DNA of 64,000 nt from Gammaproteobacteria bacterium (GTDB taxonomy: Bacteria; Pseudomonadota; Gammaproteobacteria; Ga0077536). The stretch covers positions 41,188 through 105,187 of the forward strand of contig VGUA01000001.1 of NCBI GenBank assembly GCA_016874535.1, written 5' to 3'. This document shows, piece after piece, positions 10,991 to 60,531 of the stretch (position 1 is its first letter; each line of letters begins with the position of its first letter). Under the pieces are notes generated by a model that had not been told where the DNA came from, made no database searches, and worked only from the letters and a program-made list of their open reading frames with translations. A program made the position numbers and the translations under genes.

Positions 10991-11026
10991 ACCCGCCCGT
11001 GAGCCGGTACTTGCAAAGCGCCGAGG

Positions 11027-20675: not shown

Positions 20676-20701
20676 TCATCATCCCTCAACCGCCCGCTGT
20701 C

Positions 20702-40799: not shown

Positions 40800-40924
40800 G
40801 TGCGGAAAACCCCAAGCCCTGCTGAACACTGGCCCGGAGTATAGGCAAGGTACAAGCCTTTTTCGACGCAGAGTCGTAGCGTAGTCAGCGGGCCCACGAC
40901 GGATGCGACACGCAGTCGCCCGCT

Positions 40925-40930
40925 TATAAT
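40925..40930 (+). promoter_or_regulatory. Candidate -10 hexamer TATAAT inside the inverted repeat CCGCT-TATAATG-AGCGG, 48 nt upstream of the acyl-CoA dehydrogenase ATG
   Basis: Perfect TATAAT in a divergent intergenic region. The flanking 5-bp inverted repeat could be an operator. No clear -35 element. Confidence 0.25.
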
Positions 40931-40978
40931 GAGCGGCTGAAAACACGCACGAATACCCACTGATCCGGAGCACCGCGC

Positions 40979-42184
<1,206 letters not shown>

Positions 42185-42334: not shown

Positions 42335-42772
42335 GTGGCGCAGCCGCGTTTGGTGTTGGACACGAATCTGGTGCTTTCGGCACTGGTGTGCAGTTCCGAG
42401 CGCGCGGCGCGCTGGCGGATGATGTGGCAACGCAGGCTCATCCTGCCCTTGGTATCGCAGGCCACTGCCGCGGAGCTCATGCGGGCTTTGGCGTATCCCA
42501 AGTTCAAGCTCGGCAGCGCGGAGCAGGAGGAATTGCTGGCCGACTATCTGCCCAGCTGTGAGGTGGTGTCTGTGCCGCAGCCGCCCCCGGTCACGCCACC
42601 CTGCAGAGATCCAGCCGATACCGCATTTCTGATCCTGGCGTTGGCCGGGAAGGCAGATGCAATCGTCACCGGTGACAAGGACTGGCTTGCCTTGGCTGGT
42701 ATTTTCGCATGCCCAATCTTGACCACCGAGGCGGGCCTGCAGGTCTCCGAAAAATGGGTGACAGTTACCTGA
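42335..42772 (+). CDS. PIN-domain protein (putative TA-system toxin, TIGR00305-like), orphan
   Basis: LVLDTNLVLSAL... and DPADTAFLILALAGKADAIVTGDKDW match the PIN acidic-residue pattern. GTG start. No antitoxin ORF is evident upstream. The stop codon lies inside repeat copy 1. Confidence 0.6.
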   Translation: MAQPRLVLDTNLVLSALVCSSERAARWRMMWQRRLILPLVSQATAAELMRALAYPKFKLGSAEQEELLADYLPSCEVVSVPQPPPVTPPCRDPADTAFLILALAGKADAIVTGDKDWLALAGIFACPILTTEAGLQVSEKWVTVT

Positions 42773-42818
42773 TTTCTGGAAATAGGGTAACTGTCACTAA
42801 TTTATGTCACCAATTTAT
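42754..42818. repeat. Palindromic repeat family, copy 1 (GGGTGACAGTTACCTGATTTCTGGAAATAGGGTAACTGTCACTAATTTATGTCACCAATTT)
   Basis: Imperfect palindrome of the GGTGACAGTTACCC...GGGTAACTGTCACC unit plus an extra GTCACCAATT half-site. It lies between the convergent PIN gene and amidase 3' ends. Confidence 0.85.
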
Positions 42819-44212
42819 CTGGGGTGCTGGCGGTGCCAGTGGGTCGCCCGCTGGAAGGCCCAGCCCGCGCGGACCAGCAGCGATTCTTCGAAGTTGGGCG
42901 CCACGAACTGAATGGCGACTGGAATGCCTTCCGGGTTCACGCCACCCGGCAGGGTGAGTGTGGGGCTGCCAGAGGAATCAAACGGGCAGGTGTAGCGCAG
43001 CGCGCCCGCAAGCAGGGCGGCATCTTCGCCCAAGGTCGCCATCATCGCGTGCGTGGGAGCCGCAAAAGGCATGGCCGGGATGAGTAACAGATCGACGTCC
43101 TGCCACAGCGCATTCACGCGCCCGGTGAAGTCCGCTCGCCGCAGCGCGAGACGCTGGTAGTCCATCGCACTCATCGACCGCCCGAGCTCGATGAGCCCAC
43201 TCAATCCCGGACCATATTCCGCCTTGCGCGCAGGAAAGGTGTCTGCATGCGCCACTGCGGTTTCCACTGCACACAACGGCACCCAATCCGCAACGGTCTG
43301 CGTGGTGTCCGGCATGGAGATGTCCTTCAGCTCCGCGCCCAATGACTGCACAACCTGCATCGCCTCCAGCAAGGCCTTGCGCGTGGGCTCATCCACAAAA
43401 TCCACGGTCCACGCACGAGCGACACCCACGCGCAAACCCTTGAGGCCCCGGGTCATCAGCGAGAGATAGTCTGGCACGGGGATTTGTGACGCGGTGGGAT
43501 CAAGCACATCAGCGCCAGCGATGGCGGCGAGCATCGCCCCGGCGTCCGCGGCGCTGCGCGTCATTGGGCCAATGTGATCGAGTGATGCGGCAAGTTCGAA
43601 CGCCCCATAGCGGCTCACGCGCCCCCAGGTAGGCTTGAGTCCGGTGATGCCGTTCGCTGCGGAAGGAAAGCGGATGGAGCCGCCCGTGTCCGTGCCGAGC
43701 GACCCAAAGCAGAGTCCGGCGGCCGTGGCCACGCCCGAACCACTGGAAGACGCACCGGACCACAGGCCCTGGCCCCACGGGTTGCGCGGCGCTTTCACCT
43801 GCGGGTGATGATCCGCAAAGGCGCCTTCCGTCTGCTGCAGCTTGCCGAGGATGACCGCGCCCGCCTCACGCAGGCGGCGCACGGTGGTCGCATCTTCCTT
43901 GGGCCGAAAATCCTTGTGGATAGGCATGCCGTGACCAGTTGGCACGCCGGCCGTCCACAGCAAATCCTTGACCGCCACCGGCACGCCATGCAGCGGGCCG
44001 CGCGCGTTGCCTGCCGCCATCTCCTGATCCGCGCGCCGCGCATCCGAAAGGGCTTGTTCTGCCATGAGGGTGACGAAGCTGCCGAGCGCCGGCTCTTTCT
44101 CTTCGATGCGTGCGAGCTGGGCCTTGGTAACTTCCTCCGAAGAGATCGCGCGGGTCTGGATCAATCGACCCACTTCCAGCAGTTCAAGGTAATGAAGATC
44201 TGAATCAGCCAT
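42815..44212 (-). CDS. amidase (amidase-signature family)
   Basis: 465 aa with the AS signature GGSSGGS-like region (GASSSGSGVATAAGLCFGSLGTDTGGSIRFPSA) and catalytic Lys (VKDL). Confidence 0.85.
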   Translation of the reverse strand: MADSDLHYLELLEVGRLIQTRAISSEEVTKAQLARIEEKEPALGSFVTLMAEQALSDARRADQEMAAGNARGPLHGVPVAVKDLLWTAGVPTGHGMPIHKDFRPKEDATTVRRLREAGAVILGKLQQTEGAFADHHPQVKAPRNPWGQGLWSGASSSGSGVATAAGLCFGSLGTDTGGSIRFPSAANGITGLKPTWGRVSRYGAFELAASLDHIGPMTRSAADAGAMLAAIAGADVLDPTASQIPVPDYLSLMTRGLKGLRVGVARAWTVDFVDEPTRKALLEAMQVVQSLGAELKDISMPDTTQTVADWVPLCAVETAVAHADTFPARKAEYGPGLSGLIELGRSMSAMDYQRLALRRADFTGRVNALWQDVDLLLIPAMPFAAPTHAMMATLGEDAALLAGALRYTCPFDSSGSPTLTLPGGVNPEGIPVAIQFVAPNFEESLLVRAGWAFQRATHWHRQHPR

Positions 44213-44482
44213 CTCGCCCTCCGGCAGGTTTTGGGTGTAGGTGGCGCCAAGCAGCGCCAGTGAAATACTCGCTGTTATTCGTATGGTGGCTGCAATATAC
44301 CTGCTGCGTCTGCCGTTCAGGTGTAAGTCACAATCGCGTAACGGATGTTTGAAGTGTGACCAAGGCTACGGGCTGCCGTCCATCGGCGCGAGGCCTGTTC
44401 GGCTCGCGCTGAACGACAAGCACAGGCGATGGGTTACGTTCCATCAGCGCCGGGAGCATCAAGTCCGCGTCTGACCAAAAGC

Positions 44483-44992
44483 TCATGCAAACGGACTGCT
44501 CTCGTCCTCCGCGCGCTCCGCCTTCCGCCAGGACAAACGCGGCCGCCACACGCCCACCACGATGTTTGCGACAGACAAGGCCACGATCATCCACACGCCT
44601 GCGCGCTCATGCCGCAGCAGCTCTGCAAGCGCAGCGGGATCTCCCTTACCCGACAAAGCCGTCGCCGCAAGCTCGGCGCCCCGTCGTGCGTTGGACTGCA
44701 CTGCGAGCAGCGTCCCCTCAAACATCGCAAGCCCCATCAGCGCCTTGAGCCACGGCCAGCCGAGGTTCATGAATGGACGATGCACGGCGATGGATAAGAG
44801 CCCACTCACCAATGCGAGCAGCAGCGAGGGCAAGATGAGCCATTCGGCGACGAGATGGATGCCCCGACGGATGGCGGCGAATTCGGCAGGCGATTCGCCG
44901 GGTGCCAGCATAGCGAGCACCAGATAGGTCGCCAGCCCTCCTAGCAGGCCGGCGCTCGCGACCAGATGCAGGAACTTGAGGGTTTTCTTCAT
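44483..44992 (-). CDS. small integral membrane protein (4 TM), unknown function
   Basis: 169 aa from MKKTLKF. Hydrophobic helices. It is downstream of, and likely co-transcribed with, the amidohydrolase gene. Confidence 0.5.
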   Translation of the reverse strand: MKKTLKFLHLVASAGLLGGLATYLVLAMLAPGESPAEFAAIRRGIHLVAEWLILPSLLLALVSGLLSIAVHRPFMNLGWPWLKALMGLAMFEGTLLAVQSNARRGAELAATALSGKGDPAALAELLRHERAGVWMIVALSVANIVVGVWRPRLSWRKAERAEDESSPFA

Positions 44993-45015
44993 GCAACGAG
45001 TGCTCCACTCCGCGC

Positions 45016-46698
45016 TCAAGCTGAGCCGTGCACAACCACTCCGTCAAGCATCGTCATCTCCACCTTGAGATCCTTGATGGCCTCCTCGGCACAGGTCATG
45101 GGGTCGCCCTCCAGCATCACCATGTCCGCGCGCTTGCCGGGTTCCAGCGAACCTATCTCATGCTCCATCCGCAGCGCCCATGCGCCATTCCAGGTGAAAC
45201 AGCGCAGTGCCTCTTCCCGGGTGATGCGCTGCTCCGGCCCAATCATCTCGCCCGTAAGTCCCGCCTGTCTTGCAAGGGATTGCCAGACGGTGAAGAGACC
45301 TTCGTGCGGTCCCCAGTCCGTGCTCTGCGAGACGGGCACGCCTCCATCCAGCCAGTCGCGCAGTGGAATGGCGACCTTGGCATACGCGTCGCCGAGGCGT
45401 CGTTTGTAGACCTCCTCGCCCTTGCCCCAGATGAAGTTGGTGCTGGTGGTAGGCGCCACACCCAGCCGGGCGCACAGCGCAATCTGCTCGCGGGTAGGGA
45501 ACTCGCAATGCTCCAGCACATAGCGCTTGTCGCGCACGGGCGTTTCCCGATTGATCTCTTCAAACGCCGCGAGTGCGATGCCGATGGAGCCGCGCCCCGC
45601 CGCCTCGGCGTGAATGCGGAAATTCAGCCTTGCAGCGAGACGAAGGATCTCCAGGTAGTGCTCGCGGGGAATGAGCGGTCCGGGATTCACGATATCGCCG
45701 AATGGGCCGGGATAAGGGGCGTCGTTGCAGGCCGCACCATGCCAGTAAGGCCCATCCAGACCCACCGAGCATCCAATCACCTTGAGCTGCGCATTGCCAA
45801 AGCCCCCGTTTGCGGCAAAGCGGATGGTCTTGAGATACGCCTCGATCTCACTCAGCGACTGCCGGCCATCAATCTCGAAAGTGTAGAACACGCGTACCGG
45901 CAGCCTGCCTTCGCCCAACAGCTCTGCATAGGCACGCAGCTCCTGCGGATCTGTGAGGTGCGCTTCCAGCAGGGTGGTGGTGCCGTGCGCCGCAAACTTG
46001 GGCGCGAGCAGGGCAATGCCTTCCCGCACATCCTCATAAGTAATCTGCGGAGCTGCGCGCTCCACGCATTGATAGAGCGGATCCAGGTTGTAGATGGGCT
46101 GCATTGCGCCCTGGACGATGCCAGTGGGACGGCCATTGGTATCGAGCTCCACCTGCGTATGTGGCGAGAGCGCACAACCAGCGCCTATGCCGGCCGCACG
46201 CATGGCGGCGCTGTTCAGCACGGCGAAATTCGGCACCCGGTTGGTGGGCGCCTGGATGTAGACGGGATGATCAGGTGCCAGCGCATCCAGTTCGGCGAGG
46301 TTTGGCACCGCCCCCGCAGCGCGCAGCGCCTCGGCATTGAGAAAGTAGGGCGGATCACCGATGGGCATGGCAACCACCCACGATCCTTTTGGCGTGGCGG
46401 CTATACGTTTCTGCAAACGGCCCAGTATCTCCGCGCGACTGGTGGCGCCTGTGAGCGAAACCTTGTGCTCATCCAGACCAAACAGCGCCACGTGGCCATG
46501 GGTATCGACAAAACCCGGGATGAGGGTACGCCCTGCGAGATCCACCTCGCGCGCGCCGGGGCCCTTGAAGCGCCGGATCTCCTGCGTGCTCCCCACGGCG
46601 AGAATCCGATCCCCCTGCACTGCCAGTGCCTCGGCGCGGCTGAACTGCCGGTCCACCGTCAGCACATTGCCGTTCACGAAAAGCGTTACCCCGGTCAT
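45016..46698 (-). CDS. amidohydrolase-3 family metal-dependent hydrolase (NfdA/YtcJ-like)
   Basis: 560 aa. The N-terminus VNGNVLTVD...ILAVG and the metal-binding PGFVDTHGH plus distal His/Asp motifs are typical of the Amidohydro_3 family. Confidence 0.8.
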   Translation of the reverse strand: MTGVTLFVNGNVLTVDRQFSRAEALAVQGDRILAVGSTQEIRRFKGPGAREVDLAGRTLIPGFVDTHGHVALFGLDEHKVSLTGATSRAEILGRLQKRIAATPKGSWVVAMPIGDPPYFLNAEALRAAGAVPNLAELDALAPDHPVYIQAPTNRVPNFAVLNSAAMRAAGIGAGCALSPHTQVELDTNGRPTGIVQGAMQPIYNLDPLYQCVERAAPQITYEDVREGIALLAPKFAAHGTTTLLEAHLTDPQELRAYAELLGEGRLPVRVFYTFEIDGRQSLSEIEAYLKTIRFAANGGFGNAQLKVIGCSVGLDGPYWHGAACNDAPYPGPFGDIVNPGPLIPREHYLEILRLAARLNFRIHAEAAGRGSIGIALAAFEEINRETPVRDKRYVLEHCEFPTREQIALCARLGVAPTTSTNFIWGKGEEVYKRRLGDAYAKVAIPLRDWLDGGVPVSQSTDWGPHEGLFTVWQSLARQAGLTGEMIGPEQRITREEALRCFTWNGAWALRMEHEIGSLEPGKRADMVMLEGDPMTCAEEAIKDLKVEMTMLDGVVVHGSA

Positions 46699-46829
46699 CG
46701 AGCCCCCTGTTCAAGAACGCCGACATTGGTGGCCAGAGCATACCCCCGGCCAGCAACCAACCGCCATTGCAAAAGACTTGAAGCGACGCAGCGTGGCCAT
46801 TAGTCTCCAAGGCTCTCCACCACGGTGCG

Positions 46830-48151
<1,322 letters not shown>

Positions 48152-48184
48152 GGGCTCGGTTGCCCGTGCACAGGAATCACTGAG

Positions 48185-49018
48185 ATGCCTCTGGTAGCCG
48201 CCATGCTTGTGCCGGGATCGCCGCTGCCCATGCTGCGACCGGACAATCCGCCTTGGCAGCCTTTGGTCCAAGGCTTTGCGCAGGCACGCGAAAGACTCGC
48301 GGCAAGCCAGCCCGAAGTGCTGCTGCTCTATTCCACGCAATGGATCGCGGTGCTCGATCAACTCTGGCAGACCCGCGCGCATCTCCAGGGGCTGCATGTG
48401 GACGAGAACTGGTATGAGTTTGGCGATCTGCCGTTTGATCTCCGGGTGGATACCGCGCTGGCGGAGGCCTGCGTGGAGGGCACTCGCGCGCTGGGCGTGA
48501 ACGCCAAGGGCGTGGACTACGACGGCTTTCCGCTCGATACCGGCACCATCGTGGCCTGTCGCATGCTCGATCCGGAAGGGCGACTCCCCATCGTGCTTGC
48601 GGCCAACAATCTCTATCACGACTGGGCCCAGACCAAGCGGTTGGGAGCGATGGCTGCAGAGCAGGCAGAACGGGCAGGCAAGCGCTATGCGGTGATCGGT
48701 ATCGGTGGCCTGTCCGGCACGGTATTCCGGCACGAGATAAGCATCGAGGATGACCACTTCGCAACGCCGGCGGACGATGCACTCAACCAGCAGTTGTTTG
48801 CGGCACTCGCGCGCGGCAATGAATCGGGTCTGGAGGCAGAGTGTGCTGCTTATGCCGGCGCGGCGCGGGCGGACATGGGCCTCAAGCATCTGGCCTTTGT
48901 GCTCGGTGCGATGGGCAATCGCGGATTTGGCACCGAAGTGCTGGGCTATGGACCGGTGTGGGGCAGTGGAGCCGCGGTGATCGACTTCACGGGGGCGGGC
49001 CTTGCTCAAGGAATATGA
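48185..49018 (+). CDS. LigB-like paralogue lacking metal ligands (non-catalytic alpha-type subunit)
   Basis: 277 aa. Clear paralogue of the upstream gene, but the His motifs are replaced (MLVPGSPLP, LLLYSTQW). This matches the AmnA/CnbCa-type alpha subunits. RBS AGGAA. Confidence 0.65.
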   Translation: MPLVAAMLVPGSPLPMLRPDNPPWQPLVQGFAQARERLAASQPEVLLLYSTQWIAVLDQLWQTRAHLQGLHVDENWYEFGDLPFDLRVDTALAEACVEGTRALGVNAKGVDYDGFPLDTGTIVACRMLDPEGRLPIVLAANNLYHDWAQTKRLGAMAAEQAERAGKRYAVIGIGGLSGTVFRHEISIEDDHFATPADDALNQQLFAALARGNESGLEAECAAYAGAARADMGLKHLAFVLGAMGNRGFGTEVLGYGPVWGSGAAVIDFTGAGLAQGI

Positions 49019-50405
49019 AGATCTCGATGCAATAGGACTGACCGAGTGGATACGCTCGGGTGAGGTGAGCGCGGCGGAAGTGCTGGAAGAAGCGATCCGG
49101 CGCGCGGAGGCGGCCAATGTCTCGCTCAATTTCATCGCCCACCGCGCCTATGACGAGGCGCGCAAGCGTGTAGGCGATGGCACTTTGCCACGCGGTCCGC
49201 TGCACGGCGTGCCGTGGTTGGTGAAGGAGCTCGCCACGCTCTGGCAAGGCCAACCTTTCACCAACGCCCTGCCGTGGATGCGCGGGGTGGTGGCGCCCTG
49301 CGATTCTGAAATCCTCTCCCGGCTCAAGCATGCAGGCATGGTGCCGTTCGCCAAATCCACCGCACCCGAAAACGGCTGGATGCTGGCAACAGAGTCATCT
49401 CTGCACGGCATCACCCGCAATCCTTTCAATCTGGACAGAACACCCGGCGGATCGAGCGGCGGCTCTGCCGCAGCGGTTGCGGCGCGCGTGGTGCCGATGG
49501 CGGAAGCCTCGGACGCCGGGGGATCGATTCGGGGGCCCGCTGCAAACTGCGGCCTGGTTGGCCTCAAACCCGCGCGCGGACGCGTGAGCTTGGCGCCCGC
49601 CCTGGGTGATTTCTGGCATGGCGGCGCAACGATTCTTGGCGTTACCCGCACCGTGCGCGACACCGCCCTACTGCTGGATGTGACACAAGGGCAGTTGCCC
49701 GGAGATCCTTACCAGTTGCCGCCTCCTGCGCGGCCCTATCTCGAAGAAGTCGGGATCCCGCCGGGCAAGCTGCGCATCGCCATCGTCACGAATACGCCCG
49801 CGGGTGGCACGCCACTCGATCCACAAATCGCTGCGGCCGTTGTGGCCACCGGTGCCTTGCTGGAAAGTCTGGGTCACCTGGTGGAGCCGCAGGTGGTGCC
49901 GTATGACTATCCGCGTCTGCTGGAGACCTATACCGCCATCGCCGCCACGGAGACAGCGGCTTTCTTCGAGGCCGTCATTCCCATGGTCGGAAGATCTGCG
50001 GAGCGCGCGGACATGGCGCCGATGTACTGGTCCATGTGTGAGAAGGGTCGGGCCACCACCGGCGTACAGCACGCGGCGAATATCGAAGCCATGCGGCAGA
50101 TCGCGCGCGACATCATGGGCCGCATGAACACCTACGATGCGTGGTTGATGCCTGTGCTACCGATGCTGCCGCGTGCGCACGGCTATTACGACATGTCCCG
50201 CGACGTGGACTATTACAACCGCGAGCTGCTGGGGCCGGACTGCTGCTACACGATGCCCTTCAACGTGAGCGGCGCACCGGCCATCGCCATGCCCGCCGGC
50301 TTCTCACGCGACGGGCTGCCGATAGGCGTTCAATTCGTGGGCCGGGATTGTGACGAAGCCACCCTCATCCGGCTGGCCGCGCAGCTCGAGCGCGCCCGGC
50401 AATAG
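49002..50405 (+). CDS. amidase (amidase-signature family)
   Basis: 467 aa with GGSSGGSAAAVAARVVPMAEASDAGGSIRGPA and the catalytic Lys in LVKEL. Overlaps the preceding gene by 17 nt (same operon). Confidence 0.85.
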   Translation: MLKEYEDLDAIGLTEWIRSGEVSAAEVLEEAIRRAEAANVSLNFIAHRAYDEARKRVGDGTLPRGPLHGVPWLVKELATLWQGQPFTNALPWMRGVVAPCDSEILSRLKHAGMVPFAKSTAPENGWMLATESSLHGITRNPFNLDRTPGGSSGGSAAAVAARVVPMAEASDAGGSIRGPAANCGLVGLKPARGRVSLAPALGDFWHGGATILGVTRTVRDTALLLDVTQGQLPGDPYQLPPPARPYLEEVGIPPGKLRIAIVTNTPAGGTPLDPQIAAAVVATGALLESLGHLVEPQVVPYDYPRLLETYTAIAATETAAFFEAVIPMVGRSAERADMAPMYWSMCEKGRATTGVQHAANIEAMRQIARDIMGRMNTYDAWLMPVLPMLPRAHGYYDMSRDVDYYNRELLGPDCCYTMPFNVSGAPAIAMPAGFSRDGLPIGVQFVGRDCDEATLIRLAAQLERARQ

Positions 50406-50410
50406 GAAAA

Positions 50411-50576
50411 TTGGTGGGAAATTGGTGACAGTTACCCCATTTCGGAATTCGTGACAGTTACCTCATTTCGGAATTCGTGACAGTTACCTCATTTCCGCAA
50501 ATAGGGTGACTGTCACGGTATGTACGTCACGGTACCGCCACTGGCTGGGGAAATAGGGTAACTGTCACCCATTTCC
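50411..50576. repeat. Palindromic repeat family, copy 2 (compound: three tandem 27-30-bp half-units GTGACAGTTACCYCATTTCGGAATTC plus inverted half-units)
   Basis: TTGGTGACAGTTACCCCATTTCGGAATTC, GTGACAGTTACCTCATTTCGGAATTC, GTGACAGTTACCTCATTTCCGCAAATAGGGTGACTGTCAC ... GGAAATAGGGTAACTGTCACCC. It is directly followed by the AAGGAG RBS of the hydantoinase-like gene. Confidence 0.85.
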
Positions 50577-50597
50577 CAAGCCTAAGGAGTCACGACC

Positions 50598-51988
50598 ATG
50601 CATGATCTCGTCCTGCGTAACGGTTTGGTAGTGACGCCCGCGGGCAGCTGTGGGGAGGAGTCGCAGTAGACGGCGAGCGCATCACACGGGTGGGCGCCGA
50701 TGCGGAGCTTCGACAAGGGCGCCGGGAAATCGACCTCAACGAACGCATCCTGCTACCAGGCGTATTCGATCCTCATATTCATTTTGAGGTTGGAGAGCGC
50801 TTCGGTGACGAAGCGATGGCGGAAGATTTCCGACACGACAGCAGGGACTGCCTGATTGGGGGCGTGACCTCCATTGCCACTACAACCGTTCTGGGGCGCG
50901 ACCCCTTGCCTGAACTGGTGGCGCGCGGAATCAAGGCGGGCACGGGCCAGGCTTGGTGTGACTTCAAATTCACCGGCGTTGTGATGACGCGCGAACACGT
51001 TCGCGAGATCGAGGCTGCCGCACACGCTGGAGCCACTTCATTCAAATTCTTCACCGGCTATGTGGGAGAGCAGGCAGAGGGCTTCGGGATGTCCAAGGAA
51101 GGGATACCACCGGACATGTTCTACGAGGCCTGCGAGGCGCTGGCGCGCTGCGAGCGCCCGGTATTCGCCAAGATTCATGCTGAGGATCCATACGTTCGCG
51201 GGCTGCTGGTTGACCGACTGCGACGCAGTGGCCGCGCCGATCAGCTTGTTGCCTGGGCCGAATCCACCCCGGAATGGGCCGAAGCCGTCCAGATCTTCAC
51301 CTATGGCTGCATCGCGCATGATTTCCGTATCCCACTTTACCCGGTGCACATCAGTGCCGCGTACACGGTGCGCTTTCTTGAGTACTTCATGCAGCAGGGC
51401 GTGAACGTGGTACCCGAGACTGTGACGAGTTTCCTCGCCACCACGGCGCATCAGATGGATGCGCACGGCATGGGATGTAAGGCCAAGATTCAGCCGCCGA
51501 TTCGCTTTGCCGAGGACAAGGAGCGACTGTGGCGTGGCGTGCGTGAAGGTGTCATCAAGGTCGTCGGCACCGACAGCATTCCTTATTCCAGTGGCTTCAA
51601 GGAAGGAGCCGATTTCTGGGAATGTCGCGTCGGCTTAAACCTCCAGATGGCGGACACACTGCCCCTCTTGTTTGATGAAGGAATCAACCAACGTCGCATA
51701 GACCTCAACCGTCTGGCGGAGATTACCTCTACCAACGCGGCGAAACTCTATGGGCTCTATCCCAAAAAGGGCGCGATTGCCCCGGGGAGTGATGCGGATC
51801 TGGTAGTCGTCGATCCCGAGCGCACCGCGGTGCTGGGCGTCAACAGAATGCGTTCCCGTGCCGACTACTCGATGTGGCACGACCGTCGCCTCAAAGGCAT
51901 TCCGGTAATCACCGTCCTGCGTGGCCGGGTTGTGATGGAGGATGGTGAGATCGTGGCCAATGAACCAACCGGCCGTTTCATCCACTGA
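50598..51988 (+). pseudogene. hydantoinase/dihydropyrimidinase-like cyclic amidohydrolase with an apparent -1 frameshift near 50640-50670
   Basis: A perfect RBS (TAAGGAGT) plus ATG at ~50598 encodes the canonical N-terminus MHDLVLRNGLVVTPAG and then hits TAG after 23 codons. The rest (GVAVDGERITRVGADAEL...LLPGVFDPHIHFE, carboxylated-Lys site SFKFF, VGTDSIPY) continues in another frame (track ORF 50690..51988). Confidence 0.6.
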
Positions 51989-52112
51989 GACCGTCAAGAT
52001 CCGGGTCCATCGGCAAAGGCTCTTCTATGACCTCTGACAGCACGCGCAAGCTTTACCGCGAAGCCAGCATCGGGCACGTATTGGGATTTGTCAACGCCCG
52101 GCCCTGATCGTC

Positions 52113-52681
52113 GTGGACATGCAGTACGGATTCACGGACCCCGCACGTTCGTCACTGGCCGCGGATTGTTCGCGCGAGATACCGCAGATGAACGCGCTGG
52201 TGGATGCGATGCGCTCCCGTGGCGCCCCTATTTTCTGGTCCGTGATTGCCTATCGCGACAGCGAGGTGCGTGATGCGCGCCTGTGGTCACGCAAGGCCCC
52301 CCCTTGGGCGTGCTGGTCGAGAACACAGCGATGACGGAGATCGATGCCCGCATGCACTTTGCCCCTGAAGACTTCCTCATCGTGAAGAAGCATGCATCGG
52401 CCTTCTTTGGCACCCCCTTGGCTTCCATGCTCACGGCCAGCACAGTCGACACCACTGTGGTGGTTGGTTGCACGACCAGTGGCTGCGTACGGGCAACGGT
52501 CACGGATGCAATCGCGCATGGTTTTCGACCCATCGTCCCGCGGGAGGCGGTTGCAGACCGGGCGCCTGAACCGCATCTGGCGAGTCTTTTCGACATGGGC
52601 GCGAAATATGCCGATGTGATGACGGTGGAAGAGACCCTCCAGGCCATTTGCGCCTGCCCGCATACGCATCCCGGAAATTAG
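52113..52681 (+). pseudogene. isochorismatase-family hydrolase with a frameshift at a C7 homopolymer (~52297-52303) and no canonical upstream start
   Basis: The N-terminal part (ALIVVDMQYGFTDP...) is in frame 0 (52113..52334). The C-terminal part (FLIVKKHASAFFGTPL...VVVGCTTSGCVRATVTDA with catalytic Cys) is in frame 2 (52283..52681). One extra C in the GGCCCCCCCTT run would join them. The stop codon lies inside repeat copy 3. Confidence 0.6.
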
Positions 52682-52762
52682 TGACAGTTACCCTATTTCC
52701 TGAAATAGGGTAACTGTCACCAATTCCCAAAAAATGGGGTAACTGTCACCAATTTCTCATGG
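52672..52762. repeat. Palindromic repeat family, copy 3
   Basis: GGAAATTAGTGACAGTTACCCTATTTCCTGAAATAGGGTAACTGTCACCAATT plus an extra half-site GGGGTAACTGTCACCAATTT. It lies between convergent 3' ends (isochorismatase-like gene and cytochrome c). Confidence 0.85.
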
Positions 52763-53152
52763 CCAGTGACGCGTAGGCACTCCGAATGGTGCGCGCAGTT
52801 GCTGCAGGTAACTCACCAGCTGCCAGATGGAGTTCTCAGGCAGGAGTTCGCCGTAGGCGGGCATGCCATGCGGGCGTCCATTGGCGATGGAGTGGAACAG
52901 CGCGTCAGCATCTCCGCCAAAGCGCCAGCGCCCGTCAGCGAGGCTGGGGCCGACCCAACCCGATCCCCCTCCGCCGTGGCAGCCGTCGCAGTTCATGCTG
53001 GAGAAGAGTGCTTCGCCAGCAGCCACTGCACCGGGCTCCCCCGCGAGCGGATTGCCGGCGGGCGCTTCATCTGCGATGACCGTAAAAGCAGCCACTGCCA
53101 CCGCCATCGCGCAGACCACCGAAGACCAGAGCCTCACAGCGCAAACACCCAC
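52757..53152 (-). CDS. c-type cytochrome (ExaB/c550-like electron acceptor of the adjacent PQQ dehydrogenase)
   Basis: 131 aa with a signal peptide and a CDGCH haem motif. The start overlaps the PQQ-ADH stop by 19 nt. Confidence 0.75.
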   Translation of the reverse strand: MGVCAVRLWSSVVCAMAVAVAAFTVIADEAPAGNPLAGEPGAVAAGEALFSSMNCDGCHGGGGSGWVGPSLADGRWRFGGDADALFHSIANGRPHGMPAYGELLPENSIWQLVSYLQQLRAPFGVPTRHWP

Positions 53153-54924
53153 ACCATGCCACCTTGGCTGGTGTACCGCGCGAGATCGGGCGCGAAATCG
53201 GTGGGCGGTCGCACATCAGCCGGATCTGCCGAATTCACGTCACCCGCCACCAGTGACCAGTCGCCGCCGATCCCGGAGTACACCGCGATGTACTGTCGTC
53301 CATCAGGTCCGCGATAACTGATGGGTGCACCGATCACCCCCGACCCCACCTTGAACTTCCACAGTGGCTTGCCGGTGTTGGCATCAATCGCCTTGAACCA
53401 GCCATCGAGCGTGCCGTAGAACGCCACGTCACCGGCCGTGACCAAGCTGCCGCTCCACACAGGGAAGCGCTCGTTTACTTCCCACTTCTTGCGGCCGGCC
53501 GCTGCATCCCAGGCCATGAACCCTCCCAGATGAGGGCCTGCACCCGGATGATAGGGAATGGTGGCGCCGACATACGGCGTGCCTTTGACGTAAATCGCGT
53601 CAGCCGATTGCCAGTCCATGCAGAGATTTAGCGTGGGTACATAGAAGAGCTTGGTGCGCGGAGACCAGGCAGCGGGCGCAGATGGCCCTTTGCCGCCTTC
53701 GAGCGTCGGGCAGATGTTCTTTACCAGACCGTGCGATTTGCCGGTCAATTTTTCCGGCACCACCAGCGGTCGGCCCGTGGTCTTGTCGACACCCGTCGCC
53801 CAGTTCACCGGCACATAAGGCTCGGCGACCAGCACCTCGCCAGTCGCGCGATCGAGTGCGTAGGCAAAGCCGTTCTTGTCGAAATGCACCAAGGCCTTAC
53901 GCACCCGGCCATCAATCTCCAGATCGACCAGGATGTTCTCCGCCGTCGCGTCGTAATCCCAGTTGTCGAAGGGCGTGAACTGATAAGCCCACACCAGCGA
54001 GCCGTCACCCGGCTTGCGGGCCATCACGCTCGCACTCCACTTGTTGTCGCCGAGACGCTGTTCCGCGTTGTAGGGGCCGGGGTTGCCGGTGCCGTAGTAC
54101 ACGAGATCAAGCGCCGGGTCATACGACAGCCAGCCCCATACCGGCGCACCACCGCGCTCCCAGCTTTCTTCGGCCCAAGTGTCCGTGCCGGCGTTCGGTG
54201 CTGGCGGGTAGGAAGGTTTGAAAGTTTCCTGCTTTACGCCCATTCCGGTATCAGGCCCCAGATTGCGCATCTGCCAGACAATCGCGCCAGTTTCCAGATC
54301 AAGCGCCTTCAATGAGCCGCGAATCCCGAACTCCCCGCCGGAGGGCCCCACCAGCACGCGGTTTCCCGCCACCAGCGGCGCCATGGTCAGGGTTTCGCCG
54401 CTGGCGAGATCCGCGACAGTGGTCTTCCAGAGTTCCTGCCCGGTTTTCGCGTCCACCGCCACCGTGCGGCCATCGAGCAGGTTGTAAACGATCTTGCCGT
54501 CGGCATGCACGGCCCCGCGATTCACGGCATCACAACAGGCGATACCAATCGCGGCGGGATTGGCATCCGGCCGGTACTTGAACCGCAGGGGATAGTCTTC
54601 CTGAGTCAGATCGAAGGCATACAGCACATTGGGCCACGGCGTGACGACATAGAGCGTGTCATCCACCACCAAAGGCTGGCCCTCATGTCCGCCCAGCACG
54701 CCGGTGGAGAAATTCCAAACCATGCGCAGCTTGCCGGCGTTCTCGGGCGTGATCTCGGCCAGCTCGCTGTAGCGCGTGCCGGCCATGTCCCCACCGGGCT
54801 GCGTCCACTCCTCACCCGCACCCGCCTGAACCTCGCCGGCGCCTAACAGCAGCCCCACCAGAAAAATGGGTGACAGTAACCCTATTTCCCGGAATCGGAT
54901 GGCTGTCGCGGTTTTTCCAGGCAT
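53134..54924 (-). CDS. PQQ-dependent alcohol/methanol dehydrogenase, type I, probable lanthanide-dependent (XoxF/ExaF/PedH-like)
   Basis: Eight-bladed propeller with the vicinal disulfide CC (IACCDAV) and a catalytic Asp in WDYDA, which has the extra Asp characteristic of Ln-dependent enzymes (Ca-type MxaF has WDYAG). Start taken at M16, giving the signal peptide MPGKTATAIRFREIGLLSPIFLVGLLLGAGEVQA, part of which is encoded by repeat copy 4. Confidence 0.8.
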   Translation of the reverse strand: MPGKTATAIRFREIGLLSPIFLVGLLLGAGEVQAGAGEEWTQPGGDMAGTRYSELAEITPENAGKLRMVWNFSTGVLGGHEGQPLVVDDTLYVVTPWPNVLYAFDLTQEDYPLRFKYRPDANPAAIGIACCDAVNRGAVHADGKIVYNLLDGRTVAVDAKTGQELWKTTVADLASGETLTMAPLVAGNRVLVGPSGGEFGIRGSLKALDLETGAIVWQMRNLGPDTGMGVKQETFKPSYPPAPNAGTDTWAEESWERGGAPVWGWLSYDPALDLVYYGTGNPGPYNAEQRLGDNKWSASVMARKPGDGSLVWAYQFTPFDNWDYDATAENILVDLEIDGRVRKALVHFDKNGFAYALDRATGEVLVAEPYVPVNWATGVDKTTGRPLVVPEKLTGKSHGLVKNICPTLEGGKGPSAPAAWSPRTKLFYVPTLNLCMDWQSADAIYVKGTPYVGATIPYHPGAGPHLGGFMAWDAAAGRKKWEVNERFPVWSGSLVTAGDVAFYGTLDGWFKAIDANTGKPLWKFKVGSGVIGAPISYRGPDGRQYIAVYSGIGGDWSLVAGDVNSADPADVRPPTDFAPDLARYTSQGGMVWVFAL

Positions 54925-55012
54925 GGGGTGGCTTTCGGAAATGGGGTAACTGTCACGAATTTCCGTCACGAATTTCCGGTGAGCGCGGAAATAGGGTAAC
55001 TGTCACCCATTT
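54862..55012. repeat. Palindromic repeat family, copy 4 (compound, about 150 bp)
   Basis: GGGTGACAGTAACCCTATTTCCCGG ... GGAAATGGGGTAACTGTCACGAATTTCCGTCACGAATTTCC ... GGAAATAGGGTAACTGTCACCC. It spans the PQQ-ADH start and 5' region, and lies downstream of the BVMO gene. Confidence 0.85.
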
Positions 55013-56838
55013 ATTTCGCAGCCGGGCAGGTCTCCGGCTGCGCGCCACCCGCGCAGGATGTCGAAAAACCGGAGCGGTCCTCCGCCATAGGAATAGGCGA
55101 AGAAACTGTTGCGGTTACCCGTGCGGCCCTCGTTGTTGTAGTAGCCCGGTGTGCACTCCTGCCGGAACTGCTCACCCATGCTGGCCTTGCTCTCCATCTC
55201 CGCCACCCAGGCGGCTTCGCCTTCCTCGGTGGCTTCCACCTTGCTGGCACCCCGCTGCCGCAACTCATTCAAGATATAGGTCACGTGTCGCGCCTGTTCA
55301 TCCAGCGTCTGCGGCACGTTCACCGTCACGGCACTCTGCGTGAAGCCGAGGAAAAAGCAGTTAGGAAAACCGTGCGTCTGCAACCCGTGCAGGGTGCGCA
55401 GGCCCTCGGCCCATTTCTGGCTCAAGCGGCGTCCATTGCGCCCGACGATGTCATAACCGGCGCGACGGGTGTATCCGGTGCCCACCTCGAAACCGGTCGC
55501 GAAGATGAGGCAGTCGAGTGCGTACTCCTGACCATCCACCACCACCCCGTGTTCGGTGATCCGCTCCACGCCTTTGCCGGCAGTGTCGATCAGATGCACA
55601 TTTGGGCGATTGAAGGTGGGCAGATAATCGTCGTGAAAACACGGGCGTTTGCAGAACTGGCGATACCAAGGCTTCAGCTTCTCGGCGGTGGCCGCATCCT
55701 GCACGATGGATTCCGCGCGAGCGCGCACGGCATTCATCTTCTGGTAGTCCGCGATCTCCATCAGCAGATCGCGCTCTTCGCCGGTGAGTCGGCGGCCAAT
55801 CTTGCGTGAGGCGGTCTTGGCTGCGATGGCGGTGAGGTTGCGGAAGATGTCCGTCCAGCCATCGGAGACGAGATCGACTTCCTGATCTCCACCGGAAACC
55901 AGAATGTTGAAATTCTCCATGCGGCGATACTGCCAGCCGGGCTCGAGCGAGGCGGCCCATTCGGGATCCGTCTCGCGATTGTTGCGGACATCAATGGAGC
56001 TGGGCGTGCGCTGGAATACATGGAGCGATTTGGCCGAGGCGCCGAGATGTGGGATGCACTGCACGGCCGTCGCACCGGTGCCGATGATGCCGACGCGCTT
56101 GTCCTTGAGCCCATGTAGATTGCCAGTGCTGTCGCCACCGGTGTACGCATAATCCCAGCGACTGGTGTGGAAGGTATGGCCCTTGAAGCGGTCGATGCCG
56201 GGTATTCCCGGCAGTTTGGGACGGCTGAGCGGCCCGTTGGCCATGGCGACGAAACGCGCCCGCATCTTGTCGCCGCGATCGGTCTCGATGATCCAGTAGC
56301 CGGATGCCTCATTCCAGTTCATGGCGGTCACCGAGGTCTGCAGCAACGCATCGTCATACAGACGGTAGAGACGAGCGATGTTGCGGGAATGCTCGAGGAT
56401 CTCCGGCGCGTACGAATATTTATGCTTGGGGATGTAGTTCAGCTCCTCCAGCAGCGGCAGGTAGCAGTAGGACTCCACATCGCACATCGCGCCCGGGTAG
56501 CGGTTCCAGTACCAGGTCCCGCCAAAGTCGCCGCCTTGTTCGATGACGCGGATGCTCTCGAAGCCGGCCTCGCGCAGTCGCCCGCCCATCAAGAGGCCAC
56601 CAAATCCGCCACCGATGATGACCACCTCCACCGTGTCGTTCACCGGTGCGCGCTCGATGCGCGGCGTATAGGGATCATCGATGTAGTTGGAGAAGTCGCC
56701 TTTGACCTCCAAGTATTGGTCGTTGGCGTCCTCGCGCAGCCGGCGGTCGCGTTCGGCGAGATAGCGGGCCTTGAGCGCCTGCGGGTCGAAATCGATTTCG
56801 CCAAGCACCTGGCGGATGACGTGCATTGCCTCGGACAT
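55003..56838 (-). CDS. type I Baeyer-Villiger monooxygenase (CPDMO/HAPMO-like, with N-terminal extension)
   Basis: 611 aa with FAD and NADPH Rossmann motifs (IIGGGFGG, IIGTGATA) and the BVMO fingerprint FKGHTFHTSRWD. Confidence 0.85.
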   Translation of the reverse strand: MSEAMHVIRQVLGEIDFDPQALKARYLAERDRRLREDANDQYLEVKGDFSNYIDDPYTPRIERAPVNDTVEVVIIGGGFGGLLMGGRLREAGFESIRVIEQGGDFGGTWYWNRYPGAMCDVESYCYLPLLEELNYIPKHKYSYAPEILEHSRNIARLYRLYDDALLQTSVTAMNWNEASGYWIIETDRGDKMRARFVAMANGPLSRPKLPGIPGIDRFKGHTFHTSRWDYAYTGGDSTGNLHGLKDKRVGIIGTGATAVQCIPHLGASAKSLHVFQRTPSSIDVRNNRETDPEWAASLEPGWQYRRMENFNILVSGGDQEVDLVSDGWTDIFRNLTAIAAKTASRKIGRRLTGEERDLLMEIADYQKMNAVRARAESIVQDAATAEKLKPWYRQFCKRPCFHDDYLPTFNRPNVHLIDTAGKGVERITEHGVVVDGQEYALDCLIFATGFEVGTGYTRRAGYDIVGRNGRRLSQKWAEGLRTLHGLQTHGFPNCFFLGFTQSAVTVNVPQTLDEQARHVTYILNELRQRGASKVEATEEGEAAWVAEMESKASMGEQFRQECTPGYYNNEGRTGNRNSFFAYSYGGGPLRFFDILRGWRAAGDLPGCEING

Positions 56839-57106
56839 GGAACAAGCCCTGCGGAAAGGGTCGACGACCCGGACGGGCCATCATACCCCGAGGCCGGGGT
56901 CTCGATCGCCGCCGCCGCAGCCACCTGCGGCAGACTGGCCTTGCAGACCCGGTGCGGGATGCATAGTGAATGCGCTGCAGCATCTCTTTGCTGAGGTGTG
57001 CAACGCTTGACGAGTCCTTCGCAAACCGCGATACGAGCCGAGGAGACCACACAAGCACCGGCGCGGGGTCGCACTTCGCGCACATGAGCCTAAAAAGGAA
57101 GCCACC

Positions 57107-58153
57107 ATGCGCTTTGGACTGCTCTACCCGCCCACGTTCGACGCCGCCACGCACTGCGACTCCGCCACCCTCTACCAACAGATCTGCGAGCAGGTGGAAC
57201 TGGGCGAAACCTTGGGCTACGGGGCGGTGTGGCTGGCGGAACATCACTTCACGCCCTATGGCGGCGACATACCCAACCCGCCGCTGCTGCTGGCTGCGCT
57301 CGCGCAGAGAACGAGAAAGATGCGCCTTGGCACGGCCGGCGTCGCGCTTCCACTCAACCGCGCACTGAACATTTCGTAGCAACTCGCGATGGTTGATGCC
57401 CTCTCGGGGGGACGCCTTGATATCGGCGTGGTGCGAGCATTCCTCGATTTCGAATTTGAGGCGCTGCAGGTGGACATGGGCGAGTCCCGCGATCGCTTCA
57501 ACGAGGCGGTCGAGATTCTGCTCGGCACTTGGGCGAACGAACGCTTCAGTTATCAGGGCCGCCATAACCGGTTTGAGAACGTGATGATGCGGCCCCGTCC
57601 TGTCCAGCGTCGGCCGCGGATCATCGTCGGCACGGTGCTGAGCCCTGAGTCCGCGCGCTACGCCGGGCTGAACGGCTTTGGTCTCATGGTGATTCCCTAC
57701 GCGGTGACGCTGGAGGGCGTGAAACAGAGCGTCAAGATCTACCACGAGGCATTGCTTGGGGCTGGGCACAACATTGAAGACCACACGGTGCAGGCCACTT
57801 TCCATCTCTACGCCGCCTCCACTGAAGCTGAGGCGAAGGCCGCCGCGCGCGAGCCGATGGAACGTTATGTGCAGTATTTCGCGGATGCGATCGCGGGTGA
57901 TCGCTGGTCCAAGGATTACGTGGGCTACCAGGGGATGGCAGAGAAGGTCCTGGGCCTCAAGAACTTTGATGTGCTCTACGACGGTCGCGTGATGATCGGC
58001 GATCCGCCACGGCTGCACGCAATGATGGAGCGGGCTCTGGAAGCCGGCATCGGGGAACTGTCATTCATCACCATGCTGCCCGGCCTGGAACAGGCAAAAG
58101 TGCTGGATTGCCTGCGGCTCTTTGCTGAAGAAATCATGCCGCGCTATCGGTAA
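57107..58153 (+). pseudogene. LLM-class (luciferase-like) flavin-dependent oxidoreductase interrupted by in-frame TAG at 57377-57379
   Basis: Track ORFs 57107..57379 and 57389..58153 are in the same frame and are separated only by TAG plus 3 codons. The stop falls in the conserved ...LPLNRAL/NIS*QLAMVDALSGGRLDIGV region of the TIM barrel. Confidence 0.6.
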
Positions 58154-58267: not shown

Positions 58268-58377
58268 AATTGGTGACGGAAATTGGTGACAGTTACCCTA
58301 TTTCCGGAAATGAGGTAACTGTCACCAATTTGGGGGTGCTACCTAATCTTCCGAAATGGGGTAACTGTCACGAATTA
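58268..58377. repeat. Palindromic repeat family, copy 5
   Basis: AATTGGTGACGGAAATTGGTGACAGTTACCCTATTTCCGGAAATGAGGTAACTGTCACCAATTT plus a downstream half-site GGGGTAACTGTCACGAATT. It lies between convergent 3' ends (LLM gene and FkbM-like gene). Confidence 0.85.
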
Positions 58378-59264: not shown

Positions 59265-59394
59265 CGGTAGGTCGCCCGCTGCGGGTGCGAAGGGGCGGAA
59301 GTGAGCAAACTGTCACACAAACTTCACTTGCAACGCGTGTTCACCCGTGGTCTCATCCCCAGCATTTGAAAGCGCGCCTTGGCGCCGGGAAACC

Positions 59395-60474: not shown

Positions 60475-60531
60475 AAGTTACCCTATTTCTTCGTTGATCG
60501 GCAGAAATTGGTGACAGTTACCCTATTTCTT
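60462..60531. repeat. Palindromic repeat family, copy 6 (two direct half-units)
   Basis: GGAAATTGGTGAAAGTTACCCTATTTCTTCG ... GAAATTGGTGACAGTTACCCTATTTCTTTG. Confidence 0.8.

Follow-up and report, generated by a model that had tools for sequence, protein, structure and literature searches.

What supplies a 2-aminophenol dioxygenase with its substrate in a freshwater bacterium, and how many of the catabolic-looking genes around that dioxygenase belong to the same pathway? Both questions are raised by a stretch of 64,000 nucleotides (hereafter the window), part of a 163-kb contig of the NCBI metagenome-assembled genome (MAG) "Gammaproteobacteria bacterium", an uncultured freshwater organism (proteins MBM4226202-214). 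An earlier account made from the letters alone (the sequence-only reading) had described the interval 42.8-58.2 kb as one regulator-less catabolic island, and every domain family that it named was recovered in place with Pfam and NCBIfam, which were used for all domain calls; its observations were largely right and its interpretation half right. The core of the locus, at 42815-50405, consists of seven genes in two divergent operons, Amid2-DUF2269-AH3 on one side and AmnD-AmnB-AmnA-Amid1 on the other. With a probability of roughly 0.6, we read this core as one functional unit in which the amidohydrolase AH3 and the amidases would release an o-aminophenol, the dioxygenase AmnBA would cleave its ring and AmnD would free the ammonia. 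The 2-aminophenol pathway as such is known; what appears to be new is a dioxygenase and a deaminase tied to uncharacterised amide hydrolases and stripped of regulator, dehydrogenase and lower pathway.

The dioxygenase pair and the deaminase

AmnB (47258..48151, + strand), the predicted catalytic beta subunit of 2-aminophenol 1,6-dioxygenase, matched the solved beta subunits of 2-amino-5-chlorophenol/2-aminophenol dioxygenases with E values of 8e-166 (3VSG_B, 80% identity) and 6e-163 (8IHG_A), and AmnA (48185..49018, +), the predicted non-catalytic alpha subunit, matched 3VSG_A (E 9e-90) and is 52% identical to CnbCa. The iron ligands of CtAPD from Comamonas are His13, His62 and Glu251, with Tyr129 and His195 in the second sphere (PMC5291488); AmnB carries the counterparts His15, His64, Glu253, Tyr131 and His197 within identical local motifs, and AmnA has Gly, Gln and Asp at the ligand columns, in agreement with the earlier description of one LigB-type copy with intact His motifs and a second in which they are replaced. 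The next family after the aminophenol dioxygenases, HpaD, matched AmnB at only E 4e-6, with other extradiol dioxygenases weaker still; against AmnA, other extradiol dioxygenases reached about E 1e-3, and no protocatechuate (LigAB) or gallate dioxygenase was listed among the solved matches of either subunit. Since the pair groups with aminophenol dioxygenases and not with protocatechuate or gallate enzymes, its assignment stands, and the two proteins form a true AmnB/AmnA (CnbCb/CnbCa) pair. Ring opening of o-aminophenol by an AmnA2B2 enzyme is predicted from close homology together with the intact catalytic residues. The public record of AmnB, MBM4226206.1, is labelled 'tRNA U-34 5-methylaminomethyl-2-thiouridine biosynthesis protein', which is a misannotation.

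The first gene of the operon encodes an AmnD/AmnE-type 2-aminomuconate deaminase of the RidA family (46839..47261, +), whose stop codon overlaps the amnB start (ATGA). The protein matched PDB 6IZH over its full length (E 1.3e-49) and is only 27% identical to the AmnJ-like RidA that precedes cnbCb on pCNB1; it is an orthologue of the 2-aminomuconate deaminase of Pseudomonas sp. AP-3 (6IZH) and not a generic Rid protein, and hydrolytic deamination by it is predicted on the same ground of close homology. The likeness of the RidA-LigB-LigB paralogue arrangement to the 2-aminophenol 1,6-dioxygenase system with its YjgF-family deaminase, which the sequence-only reading had pointed out, is thereby upheld. 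The RidA-beta-alpha order is canonical and not unusual in itself (pCNB1; amnRJBACDFEHG in LB400).

The canonical partners of these genes were sought by tblastn across the whole 64 kb (E <= 10). No match was obtained with CnbD, the query for the AmnC dehydrogenase, nor with the pCNB1 hydratase, decarboxylase, tautomerase and MarR protein. No aldolase or acetaldehyde dehydrogenase domain occurs among the annotated ORFs (open reading frames) of the window, neither enzyme having been used as a tblastn query, and no DNA-binding Pfam domain was found in the ORFs tested, at about 37-64 kb. Within these scopes, the lack of aldehyde dehydrogenase, hydratase, aldolase and a nearby transcription factor was as previously described. 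A regulator may act in trans.

In the position of the MarR-type AmnR/CnbR, the gene divergent from the amn operon is AH3. The two operons are separated by a control region of 140 bp (46699..46838), so that the earlier picture of divergent transcription from a shared intergenic region was right and its size, given as 130 bp, was not. A promoter-like TTGAAG-N17-TAGTCT lies at 46778-46806, and a TTGA(A/T)G-17-TAG(T/G)CT pattern recurs by eye in four related loci (L098, L013, L011 and L019), the intergenic sequences otherwise differing. A generic consensus promoter scan of the 140 bp gave no match. A conserved operator was considered and rejected, as no palindrome was seen in the region and only the TTGAAG-17-TAGTCT pattern recurs.

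The amidohydrolase and the amidases

AH3 (45016..46698, - strand) is a YtcJ-type metal amidohydrolase (Amidohydro_3), matching PF07969 over its full length (E 5e-68). It has the TIM-barrel amidohydrolase fold, and its predicted metal ligands H67, H69, H363, H397 and D461 (HxH, His, His, Asp) are invariant in 33 homologues. Among the characterised YtcJ/PF07969 enzymes are N-substituted formamide deformylase (NfdA), the epsilon-lysine acylases and the bile salt hydrolase BwBSH1, which is metal-dependent; each of these frees an amine from an amide. The names of AH3 homologues in the sources are confined to "amidohydrolase" or "YtcJ". Its AlphaFold model is confident (predicted local distance difference test, pLDDT, of 92), but a structure-based function could not be drawn from it, as the nearest solved folds, 3ICJ and 3IGH (21% identity), are both uncharacterised; more distant fold matches (TrzN, AtzA, prolidases and the benzoxazole-forming amidohydrolase 6SJ0) share about 15% identity and were set aside as uninformative.

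Two amidase signature (AS) enzymes close the two operons. Amid2 (42815..44212, -; PF01425 E 4e-101), the last gene product of the AH3 operon, carries the motifs VKD81 (K82), GASSSGS153 and GGSIRFP177 and has GatA and biuret hydrolase as its best solved matches. Amid1 (49002..50405, +; PF01425 E 8e-90), encoded by a gene overlapping the amnA 3' end by 17 nt, carries VKE74 (K75), GGSSGGS149 and GGSIRGP173 and is NylA-like, its best solved match being the 6-aminohexanoate cyclic dimer hydrolase 3A2P (E 4e-81), with aryl acylamidase at E 6e-41. The Ser-cisSer-Lys AS signature is thus kept in both. The remaining core gene, between Amid2 and AH3, encodes a DUF2269 integral membrane protein of 169 aa (44483..44992, -; PF10027 E 5e-7); it is called in L001-L006 and occurs only in this lineage.

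In L013 and L025, the place of Amid1 is taken by orthologues of 68-69% identity; in L011, L012 and L020 the Amid1-family amidase is 36-37% identical. Across loci, the AH3-linked amidases are only 27-45% identical to one another and are not orthologous. An orthology of Amid1 with a CnbZ-type deaminase was also considered and dropped: the amidase of the pCNB1 cnb cluster is only 27-29% identical to Amid1/Amid2 and is the orthologue of neither.

Conservation of the core

In the metagenome relative L098 (DNA 91% identical), all seven core genes are kept in the order Amid2-DUF2269-AH3 divergent from AmnD-AmnB-AmnA-Amid1. With this relative as the reference, the ratio of nonsynonymous to synonymous substitution rates (dN/dS) is 0.02-0.14 (AmnB 0.020, Amid2 0.042, AH3 0.044, DUF2269 protein 0.065, Amid1 0.077, AmnA 0.080 and AmnD 0.136) at dS 0.25-0.52, which denotes purifying selection, and all seven genes are predicted to be functional. 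Outside L098, AH3 divergent from AmnD-AmnB-AmnA was found in nine other proteobacterial loci (L009, L011-L014, L019, L020, L025 and L119/L120), accompanied by an Amid1-family amidase in L011, L012, L013, L020, L025 and L119; L119/L120 represent an abundant freshwater lineage with exactly AH3 divergent from RidA-LigB-LigB-amidase. The proposed linkage of amide hydrolase and dioxygenase is accordingly borne out by the genomic context of relatives. A non-functional, decaying amn/cnb remnant that has lost its regulator and lower pathway would fit the missing canonical partners and the surroundings of the core, which are rich in repeats resembling repetitive extragenic palindromes (REP) and contain three pseudogenes and toxin-antitoxin genes; seven intact ORFs with their catalytic residues kept, the low dN/dS values and the recurrence of the same reduced architecture in nine other lineages at 62-89% identity speak against it, and we regard it as highly improbable.

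An AmnB scan using one genome per species yielded 350 relatives, of which the loci of the best 80 were examined. These AmnB proteins are 82-89% identical to that of the window and are spread over Gamma- and Alphaproteobacteria, Binatia, Myxococcota and further groups. An AmnD-type RidA is a neighbour in 44 of the 80, an AmnC-type dehydrogenase in 17, hydratase plus decarboxylase in six and MarR in four; by these counts, reduced AmnD-AmnBA loci are common. In L020, a Panacagrimonas MAG, the genes form a single co-directional operon, AmnC-AH3-AmnD-AmnB-AmnA-amidase, among glmU and atp genes, and the AmnC fragment is 61% identical to CnbD and matches the 2-aminomuconate semialdehyde dehydrogenase 4U3W (PDB) at E 2e-87. 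Two further arrangements were seen. Gammaproteobacterial MAGs show a second reduced architecture, isochorismatase-like hydrolase-AmnD-AmnB-AmnA among housekeeping genes (L027, L045, L059, L065, L080, L083 and L085; about 9150-11900), and alphaproteobacterial loci such as L030 have LysR divergent from AmnB-AmnA-ABC transporter-second AmnA-like gene.

The neighbourhoods of AH3 extend beyond the Proteobacteria. AH3 orthologues of 67-78% identity adjoin AmnD-AmnB-AmnA in eight MAG loci (L009, L011-L014, L019, L020 and L025), across which no other gene family recurs. In two cultured actinobacteria, Pseudonocardia asaccharolytica and Pseudonocardia sp. T1-2H, an IclR-AH3 pair is divergent from an operon for AmnB, AmnA and the shell of a bacterial microcompartment (BMC), termed ARO; the AH3 of both is 53% identical to that of the window, and an Abhydrolase_3 gene lies between IclR-AH3 and the ARO operon. 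Translational coupling of AH3 to an AS amidase is seen in Sinosporangium, Streptomyces and Rhizohabitans. The neighbours of AH3 in one gammaproteobacterium are a LigA-LigB/HpaB homoprotocatechuate-type cluster and an Abhydrolase_3 gene, one actinobacterial MAG has an Abhydrolase_3-AH3 pair, and three loci reached from the AH3 side show no such link. The 20 distinct AH3 loci comprise nine reached via the AmnB search and 11 via AH3 homologues. AmnBA stands beside AH3 in 12 of the 20, a figure that is inflated because nine of these 12 were found through AmnB; an AS amidase is present in 10 and an arylacetamide-deacetylase-type (Abhydrolase_3) esterase in four. Among the 11 loci reached from the AH3 side, AmnBA occurs in three, an AS amidase in four (one locus having both), another LigAB pathway in one and none of these in four. 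Neighbour-joining places the AmnBA-linked AH3 sequences of Proteobacteria in one clade, within which two exceptions are nested, and the actinobacterial sequences in another.

The same neighbourhoods bear on the main rival reading, in which ring cleavage precedes the action of the hydrolases. With a substituted o-aminophenol or hydroxy-aminopyridine as substrate, the fission product would bear an amide or N-formyl group instead of the aldehyde, and AH3 (as a deformylase) and the AS amidase would replace AmnC and provide AmnD with 2-aminomuconate, by analogy with NicX, NicD and NicF in nicotinate breakdown. This is consistent with the absence of AmnC from the window and most AH3-type loci, with the translational coupling of Amid1 to AmnA, with the membership of N-substituted formamide deformylase in the AH3 family, and with the isochorismatase-type amidases that stand in for AH3 in the sister set of loci; NicF belongs to the same family as these amidases. 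On the other hand, enzymes with proven activity on plain 2-aminophenol or 2-amino-5-chlorophenol share 80-89% identity with AmnB and have identical first- and second-sphere residues, a bona fide AmnC occurs together with AH3 and an amidase in the L020 operon, and the Pseudonocardia AH3 lies outside the microcompartment operon, beside a regulator. We judge the bypass unlikely.

A proposed route from conjugated aminophenol

The preferred reading, with the hydrolases acting before cleavage, would start with uptake of an N-acylated, N-formylated or carbamoylated o-aminophenol. AH3 and/or the AS amidases would hydrolyse the C-N bond or bonds to give a free 2-aminophenol-type compound, as the conserved linkage and the chemistry of the families suggest, and AmnA2B2, by its close homology and intact catalytic residues, would open the ring to 2-aminomuconate 6-semialdehyde. 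Conversion of this semialdehyde into 2-aminomuconate would fall to an AmnC-type dehydrogenase encoded elsewhere; otherwise, part of the semialdehyde would cyclise spontaneously to picolinate. The AmnD-type RidA deaminase would, by homology, release ammonium and 4-oxalocrotonate, the latter being consumed by a general meta-cleavage lower pathway that would also be encoded elsewhere. The net role would be the salvage of nitrogen and carbon from conjugated aminophenol, with the toxic, auto-oxidising free aminophenol kept low.

A shorter version of this route would end at the semialdehyde, which would cyclise spontaneously to picolinic acid, a metal chelator, so that the truncated pathway would serve detoxification or picolinate formation only. 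The lack of AmnC in the 64 kb fits such a pathway, and non-enzymatic formation of picolinate from the semialdehyde is documented in LB400 and JS45. AmnD, however, is the first gene of the operon and under purifying selection, and would be left without a substrate unless it acted on the semialdehyde like the deaminase of Bordetella 10d, whose pathway is a precedent for deamination at that stage; furthermore, picolinate inhibited growth of the LB400 producer. We find this version improbable, more so than the bypass of AmnC by amide hydrolysis.

Several points weigh against the salvage route itself. The AH3 clade has no characterised member, and its nearest solved structures are themselves uncharacterised. 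The linkage of AmnBA to AH3 is a biased count, nine of the 12 loci stemming from the AmnB search. AmnC is missing from the window, from 10 kb around the genes in seven of the eight AH3-bearing MAG relatives found through AmnB, and from L119; the substrate of AmnD must therefore come from an enzyme not seen. As the AH3-linked amidases are non-orthologous, their pairing with AH3 could reflect several different chemistries.

Peripheral genes and REP-like hairpins

To the right of the core, the interval up to 58.2 kb holds broken and intact genes side by side. The dihydropyrimidinase/hydantoinase-like gene (50598..51988, +) is a pseudogene with a frameshift near 50645; TIGR02033 is matched from profile position 29 only, and the N-terminus MHDLVLRNGLVVTPAGS lies in another frame. 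The isochorismatase-like hydrolase gene (52027..52681, +) is frameshifted twice, near 52100 and within the C7 run near 52295, with its upstream parts in two other frames, and matches only positions 67-175 of the PF00857 profile. Contigs L001 and L004, which come from two other samples, carry the lesions of both genes base for base. The luciferase-like monooxygenase (LLM) gene (57107..58153, +) contains an in-frame TAG at 57377-57379. The three domains named by the sequence-only reading are present, then, but the genes are disrupted.

The pyrroloquinoline quinone (PQQ) enzyme (53134..54969, -) was correctly described as of the lanthanide type, but is a XoxF-type methanol dehydrogenase rather than a step in the pathway: it scores 598 bits against TIGR03075, above the cut-off, and its best solved match is 4MAE (E 3e-186), followed by named XoxF entries, with ExaA-type enzymes at E 1e-85 to 2e-88. 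It carries a WDYD motif at residue 337; the extra Asp of DYD marks lanthanide-dependent PQQ enzymes. The gene is followed by that of a c-type cytochrome (52757..53107, -; CDGCH motif, PF13442 on the called gene in L001), which had been overlooked and is XoxG-like; as the best solved relatives of the PQQ enzyme are XoxF, the two were taken as a xoxF-xoxG pair. A type I Baeyer-Villiger monooxygenase (BVMO; 55003..56838, -) has the FxGxxxHxxxWD motif at residue 218 and resembles PtlE (NF045818, 834 bits, below the cut-off of 1100).

These modules are separated by a repeat unit, GGAAATTGGTGACAGTTACCCTATTTCC, a 26-nt imperfect palindrome that lies outside genes and occurs in 20 copies in seven clusters at 42.7-63.1 kb, with none in 1-42.7 kb and 0 expected by chance. 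All copies are thus in the right-hand third of the window, and five clusters mark module junctions within the 42.8-58.2 kb interval. The core is bounded on the left by a hairpin-forming doublet (42750..42802) and on the right by a cluster of three direct and two inverted copies (50414..50568); the other clusters lie at 52670..52756, 54859..55012, 58275..58376, 60460-60529 and 63044-63099. The inverted doublets can form hairpins of 23 bp (-36 kcal/mol, z = -8), and the orientation of the copies follows transcription, with + copies after + strand genes and - copies after - strand genes with few exceptions. One copy overlaps the annotated 5' end of the xoxF ORF.

The repeat is also found on 18 other metagenome contigs, and on a related contig (L096:3528-4193) it flanks an IS200-like Y1 transposase (Y1_Tnp, PF01797, E 1e-10). 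Because of this repeat-flanked transposase, an assignment to REP/REPIN elements was favoured over attC sites. The window repeats resemble the REP/REPIN-RAYT system in their extragenic palindrome of about 26 nt, their inverted doublets and the repeat-flanked Y1_Tnp of the related contig, and differ in that no RAYT gene is present in the window and all 20 copies crowd its right-hand third. Integron attC and Xer/pdif-type sites were rejected, given copies on both strands, perfect back-to-back palindromes, a unit of about 26 nt and no core-site consensus: the GTTACCC of the repeat does not fit the GTTRRRY core, and attC sites are expected in one orientation, with an imperfect R''-L''/L'-R' structure of >= 55 nt and an IntI integrase nearby. 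The annotated ORFs of the window include no integrase domain. A stretch of L093 (1-2754, minus strand) carries three toxin-antitoxin cassettes, each about 700 bp long (AbrB-type+PIN, RHH+PIN and Phd+YoeB) and each followed by one repeat copy in a single orientation, a cassette-array-like layout that is slightly odd for REP.

Module arrangement differs between the window and its 79-91% identical relatives L098 and L103. Homology with L098 begins just inside the left REP doublet, and L098 has GDP-mannose dehydratase and fucose synthase genes (gmd/fcl) where the window has an acyl-CoA dehydrogenase (ACAD) and a PIN gene; in L103, a cytochrome and a Na/Ca exchanger stand in place of the LLM pseudogene. 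It is on this evidence, together with the state of the genes themselves, that the reading of 42.8-58.2 kb as a single regulator-less island, with all enzymes acting sequentially on one amide- or lactam-bearing aminoaromatic or N-heterocycle, has to be judged. All the domain families are indeed present and adjacent, no regulator was detected, an isochorismatase-like gene stands directly upstream of AmnD-AmnB-AmnA in eight other MAG loci, and L013 has a BVMO and an LLM close to its cluster. The L013 BVMO, however, is about 32% identical to the BVMOs of the window and the L013 LLM has no match to that of the window. The PQQ enzyme is a periplasmic methanol dehydrogenase with its cytochrome c, each module is bounded by REP hairpins with other neighbours at the same junctions in L098 and L103, and the peripheral modules are syntenic with the core in none of nine relatives, in which only AH3 divergent from AmnD-AmnB-AmnA(-amidase) is conserved. 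The three pseudogenes, two of them with the same lesions in independent samples, weaken the single-island reading decisively, and we consider it very doubtful.

The REP junctions, rearranged neighbours and pseudogenes imply instead that this part of the chromosome is flexible and in partial decay and is no pathway island, and the peripheral genes are independent modules of a REP-rich chromosomal region, outside the aminophenol pathway. The order deacylation, aminophenol-type cleavage and deamination, proposed by the sequence-only reading, survives in part: genes for cleavage and deamination are supported by homology and the hydrolases by linkage, and the hydantoinase, the isochorismatase and the alcohol/ketone oxidation set fall away. 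More generally, closely packed domains that look catabolic can belong to a mosaic of unrelated, partly dead modules, which is a caution for inference from gene content.

Chromosomal setting

The locus recurs in identical form on freshwater metagenome contigs from several samples. The left 36 kb of the window is ordinary chromosome (mutY, asmA, argH, rsmE, rsd, a Ser/Thr kinase, a response regulator, dksA, a glycerol-kinase-like gene, an RND efflux pump and pyruvate kinase). A search of the window for a tRNA or Rfam family as a marker of an island boundary found none. The DksA-domain ORF (12456-14012, -) has an upstream extension of 400 residues, with the domain at the ORF end, and contains a tandem repeat at 13325-13502 (36-nt unit x4.9, Ala/Lys/Pro-rich) that coincides with a strong AT-skew anomaly. 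An HpaB-family (4-hydroxyphenylacetate 3-hydroxylase-like) oxygenase of 569 aa, followed by an MFS transporter, is encoded at 18966-21925, 26 kb from the amn genes; L111 likewise has an HpaB gene close to its AH3 orthologue. The stretch 39306-42184, which adjoins the core module on the left and lies outside the REP-bounded unit, encodes a second flavin monooxygenase (FMO/BVMO-like, 497 aa) and, divergently, an acyl-CoA dehydrogenase, and an orphan PIN_3 toxin gene (42335-42772) overlaps a REP copy with its 3' end.

The right flank encodes an FkbM methyltransferase, a YD-repeat-like ORF, a membrane protein, an MNT-HepT toxin-antitoxin pair and an ammonium transporter. The YD-repeat-like ORF (59347-60474, 375 aa) shows a periodicity of YDASWQ and SWG, has an acidic Pro-rich tail and gave no Pfam match. 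The toxin-antitoxin pair lies at 61693-62608, with MNT at 61693-62004 and the HepT-like gene from about 61994. In the 99.6% identical contig L105, the ammonium transporter has an in-frame stop at 1787-1789, a population variant; the corresponding codon of the window (63982-63984) encodes Tyr, and a stop in the transporter of the window was rejected.

Comparison with known systems

The closest characterised amidohydrolases of the family are NfdA, the epsilon-lysine acylases and BwBSH1 (YtcJ-like), with which AH3 shares the Pfam family and the set of metal ligands (HxH, His, His, Asp). These enzymes cleave an amide C-N bond and release an amine, whereas AH3 is without a close characterised relative in sequence.

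Among aminophenol pathways, the amn/cnb clusters of Pseudomonas sp. AP-3 (amnBACFEDHG), Burkholderia xenovorans LB400 (amnRJBACDFEHG) and Comamonas pCNB1 (cnbR-orf-cnbCbCa) have in common with the window an alpha2beta2 LigB-type dioxygenase (beta 80% and alpha 52% identical to CnbCb/CnbCa), the RidA-beta-alpha order and a YjgF/RidA deaminase, that of the window being orthologous to AP-3 AmnE/AmnD. In contrast to these clusters, the window gave no tblastn match for MarR, AmnC, decarboxylase or hydratase, and aldolase and acetaldehyde dehydrogenase domains were unseen among its annotated ORFs. Its RidA upstream of amnB is of the deaminase and not the AmnJ type (27% identity). In addition, it has a divergent YtcJ amidohydrolase operon and a NylA-like amidase at the operon end, the amidase of the pCNB1 cluster being only 27-29% identical to the window amidase. 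Work on 2-aminophenol dioxygenases has been confined almost entirely to degraders of pollutants (nitrobenzene, chloronitrobenzene); AmnB proteins of 82-89% identity are present in at least 80 MAG species from several phyla.

The ARO microcompartment locus of Actinobacteria, as present in the two Pseudonocardia species, offers the second comparison. It has an AmnB/AmnA pair of 58%/41% identity with an AH3 orthologue (53%) beside it; it differs by its shell proteins, an AmnC-type dehydrogenase, phosphoenolpyruvate (PEP)-utilising enzymes, an IclR gene directly upstream of AH3 and an Abhydrolase_3 gene instead of AS amidases, the window having neither shell genes nor regulator. In the paper on this system (Doron et al. 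2023, PMC10470539), 2-aminophenol is described as toxic, as not being the inducer and as arising from an unknown precursor, HyuAB is the sole candidate named for the upper pathway, the amidohydrolase is unmentioned, and the region upstream of IclR differs in Pseudonocardiales. The presence of one AH3 orthogroup beside AmnBA in freshwater and groundwater Proteobacteria and beside ARO in Pseudonocardia would point to the feedstock of the widespread orphan AmnBA systems, an N-acyl, N-formyl or carbamoyl conjugate. We tentatively propose, at less than even odds, that AH3 with an aryl-acylamidase-type partner (AS amidase or Abhydrolase_3) is the missing upper-pathway step of natural 2-aminophenol catabolism, freeing aminophenol from a conjugate. 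Being genetically tied to the dioxygenase in two phyla, AH3 is a concrete candidate for the substrate-supplying step, and this cross-phylum link is the part worth experimental follow-up, which is possible because Pseudonocardia asaccharolytica and other cultured actinomycetes carry AH3 orthologues. If correct, the proposal would address the precursor of 2-aminophenol left open for the ARO microcompartment.

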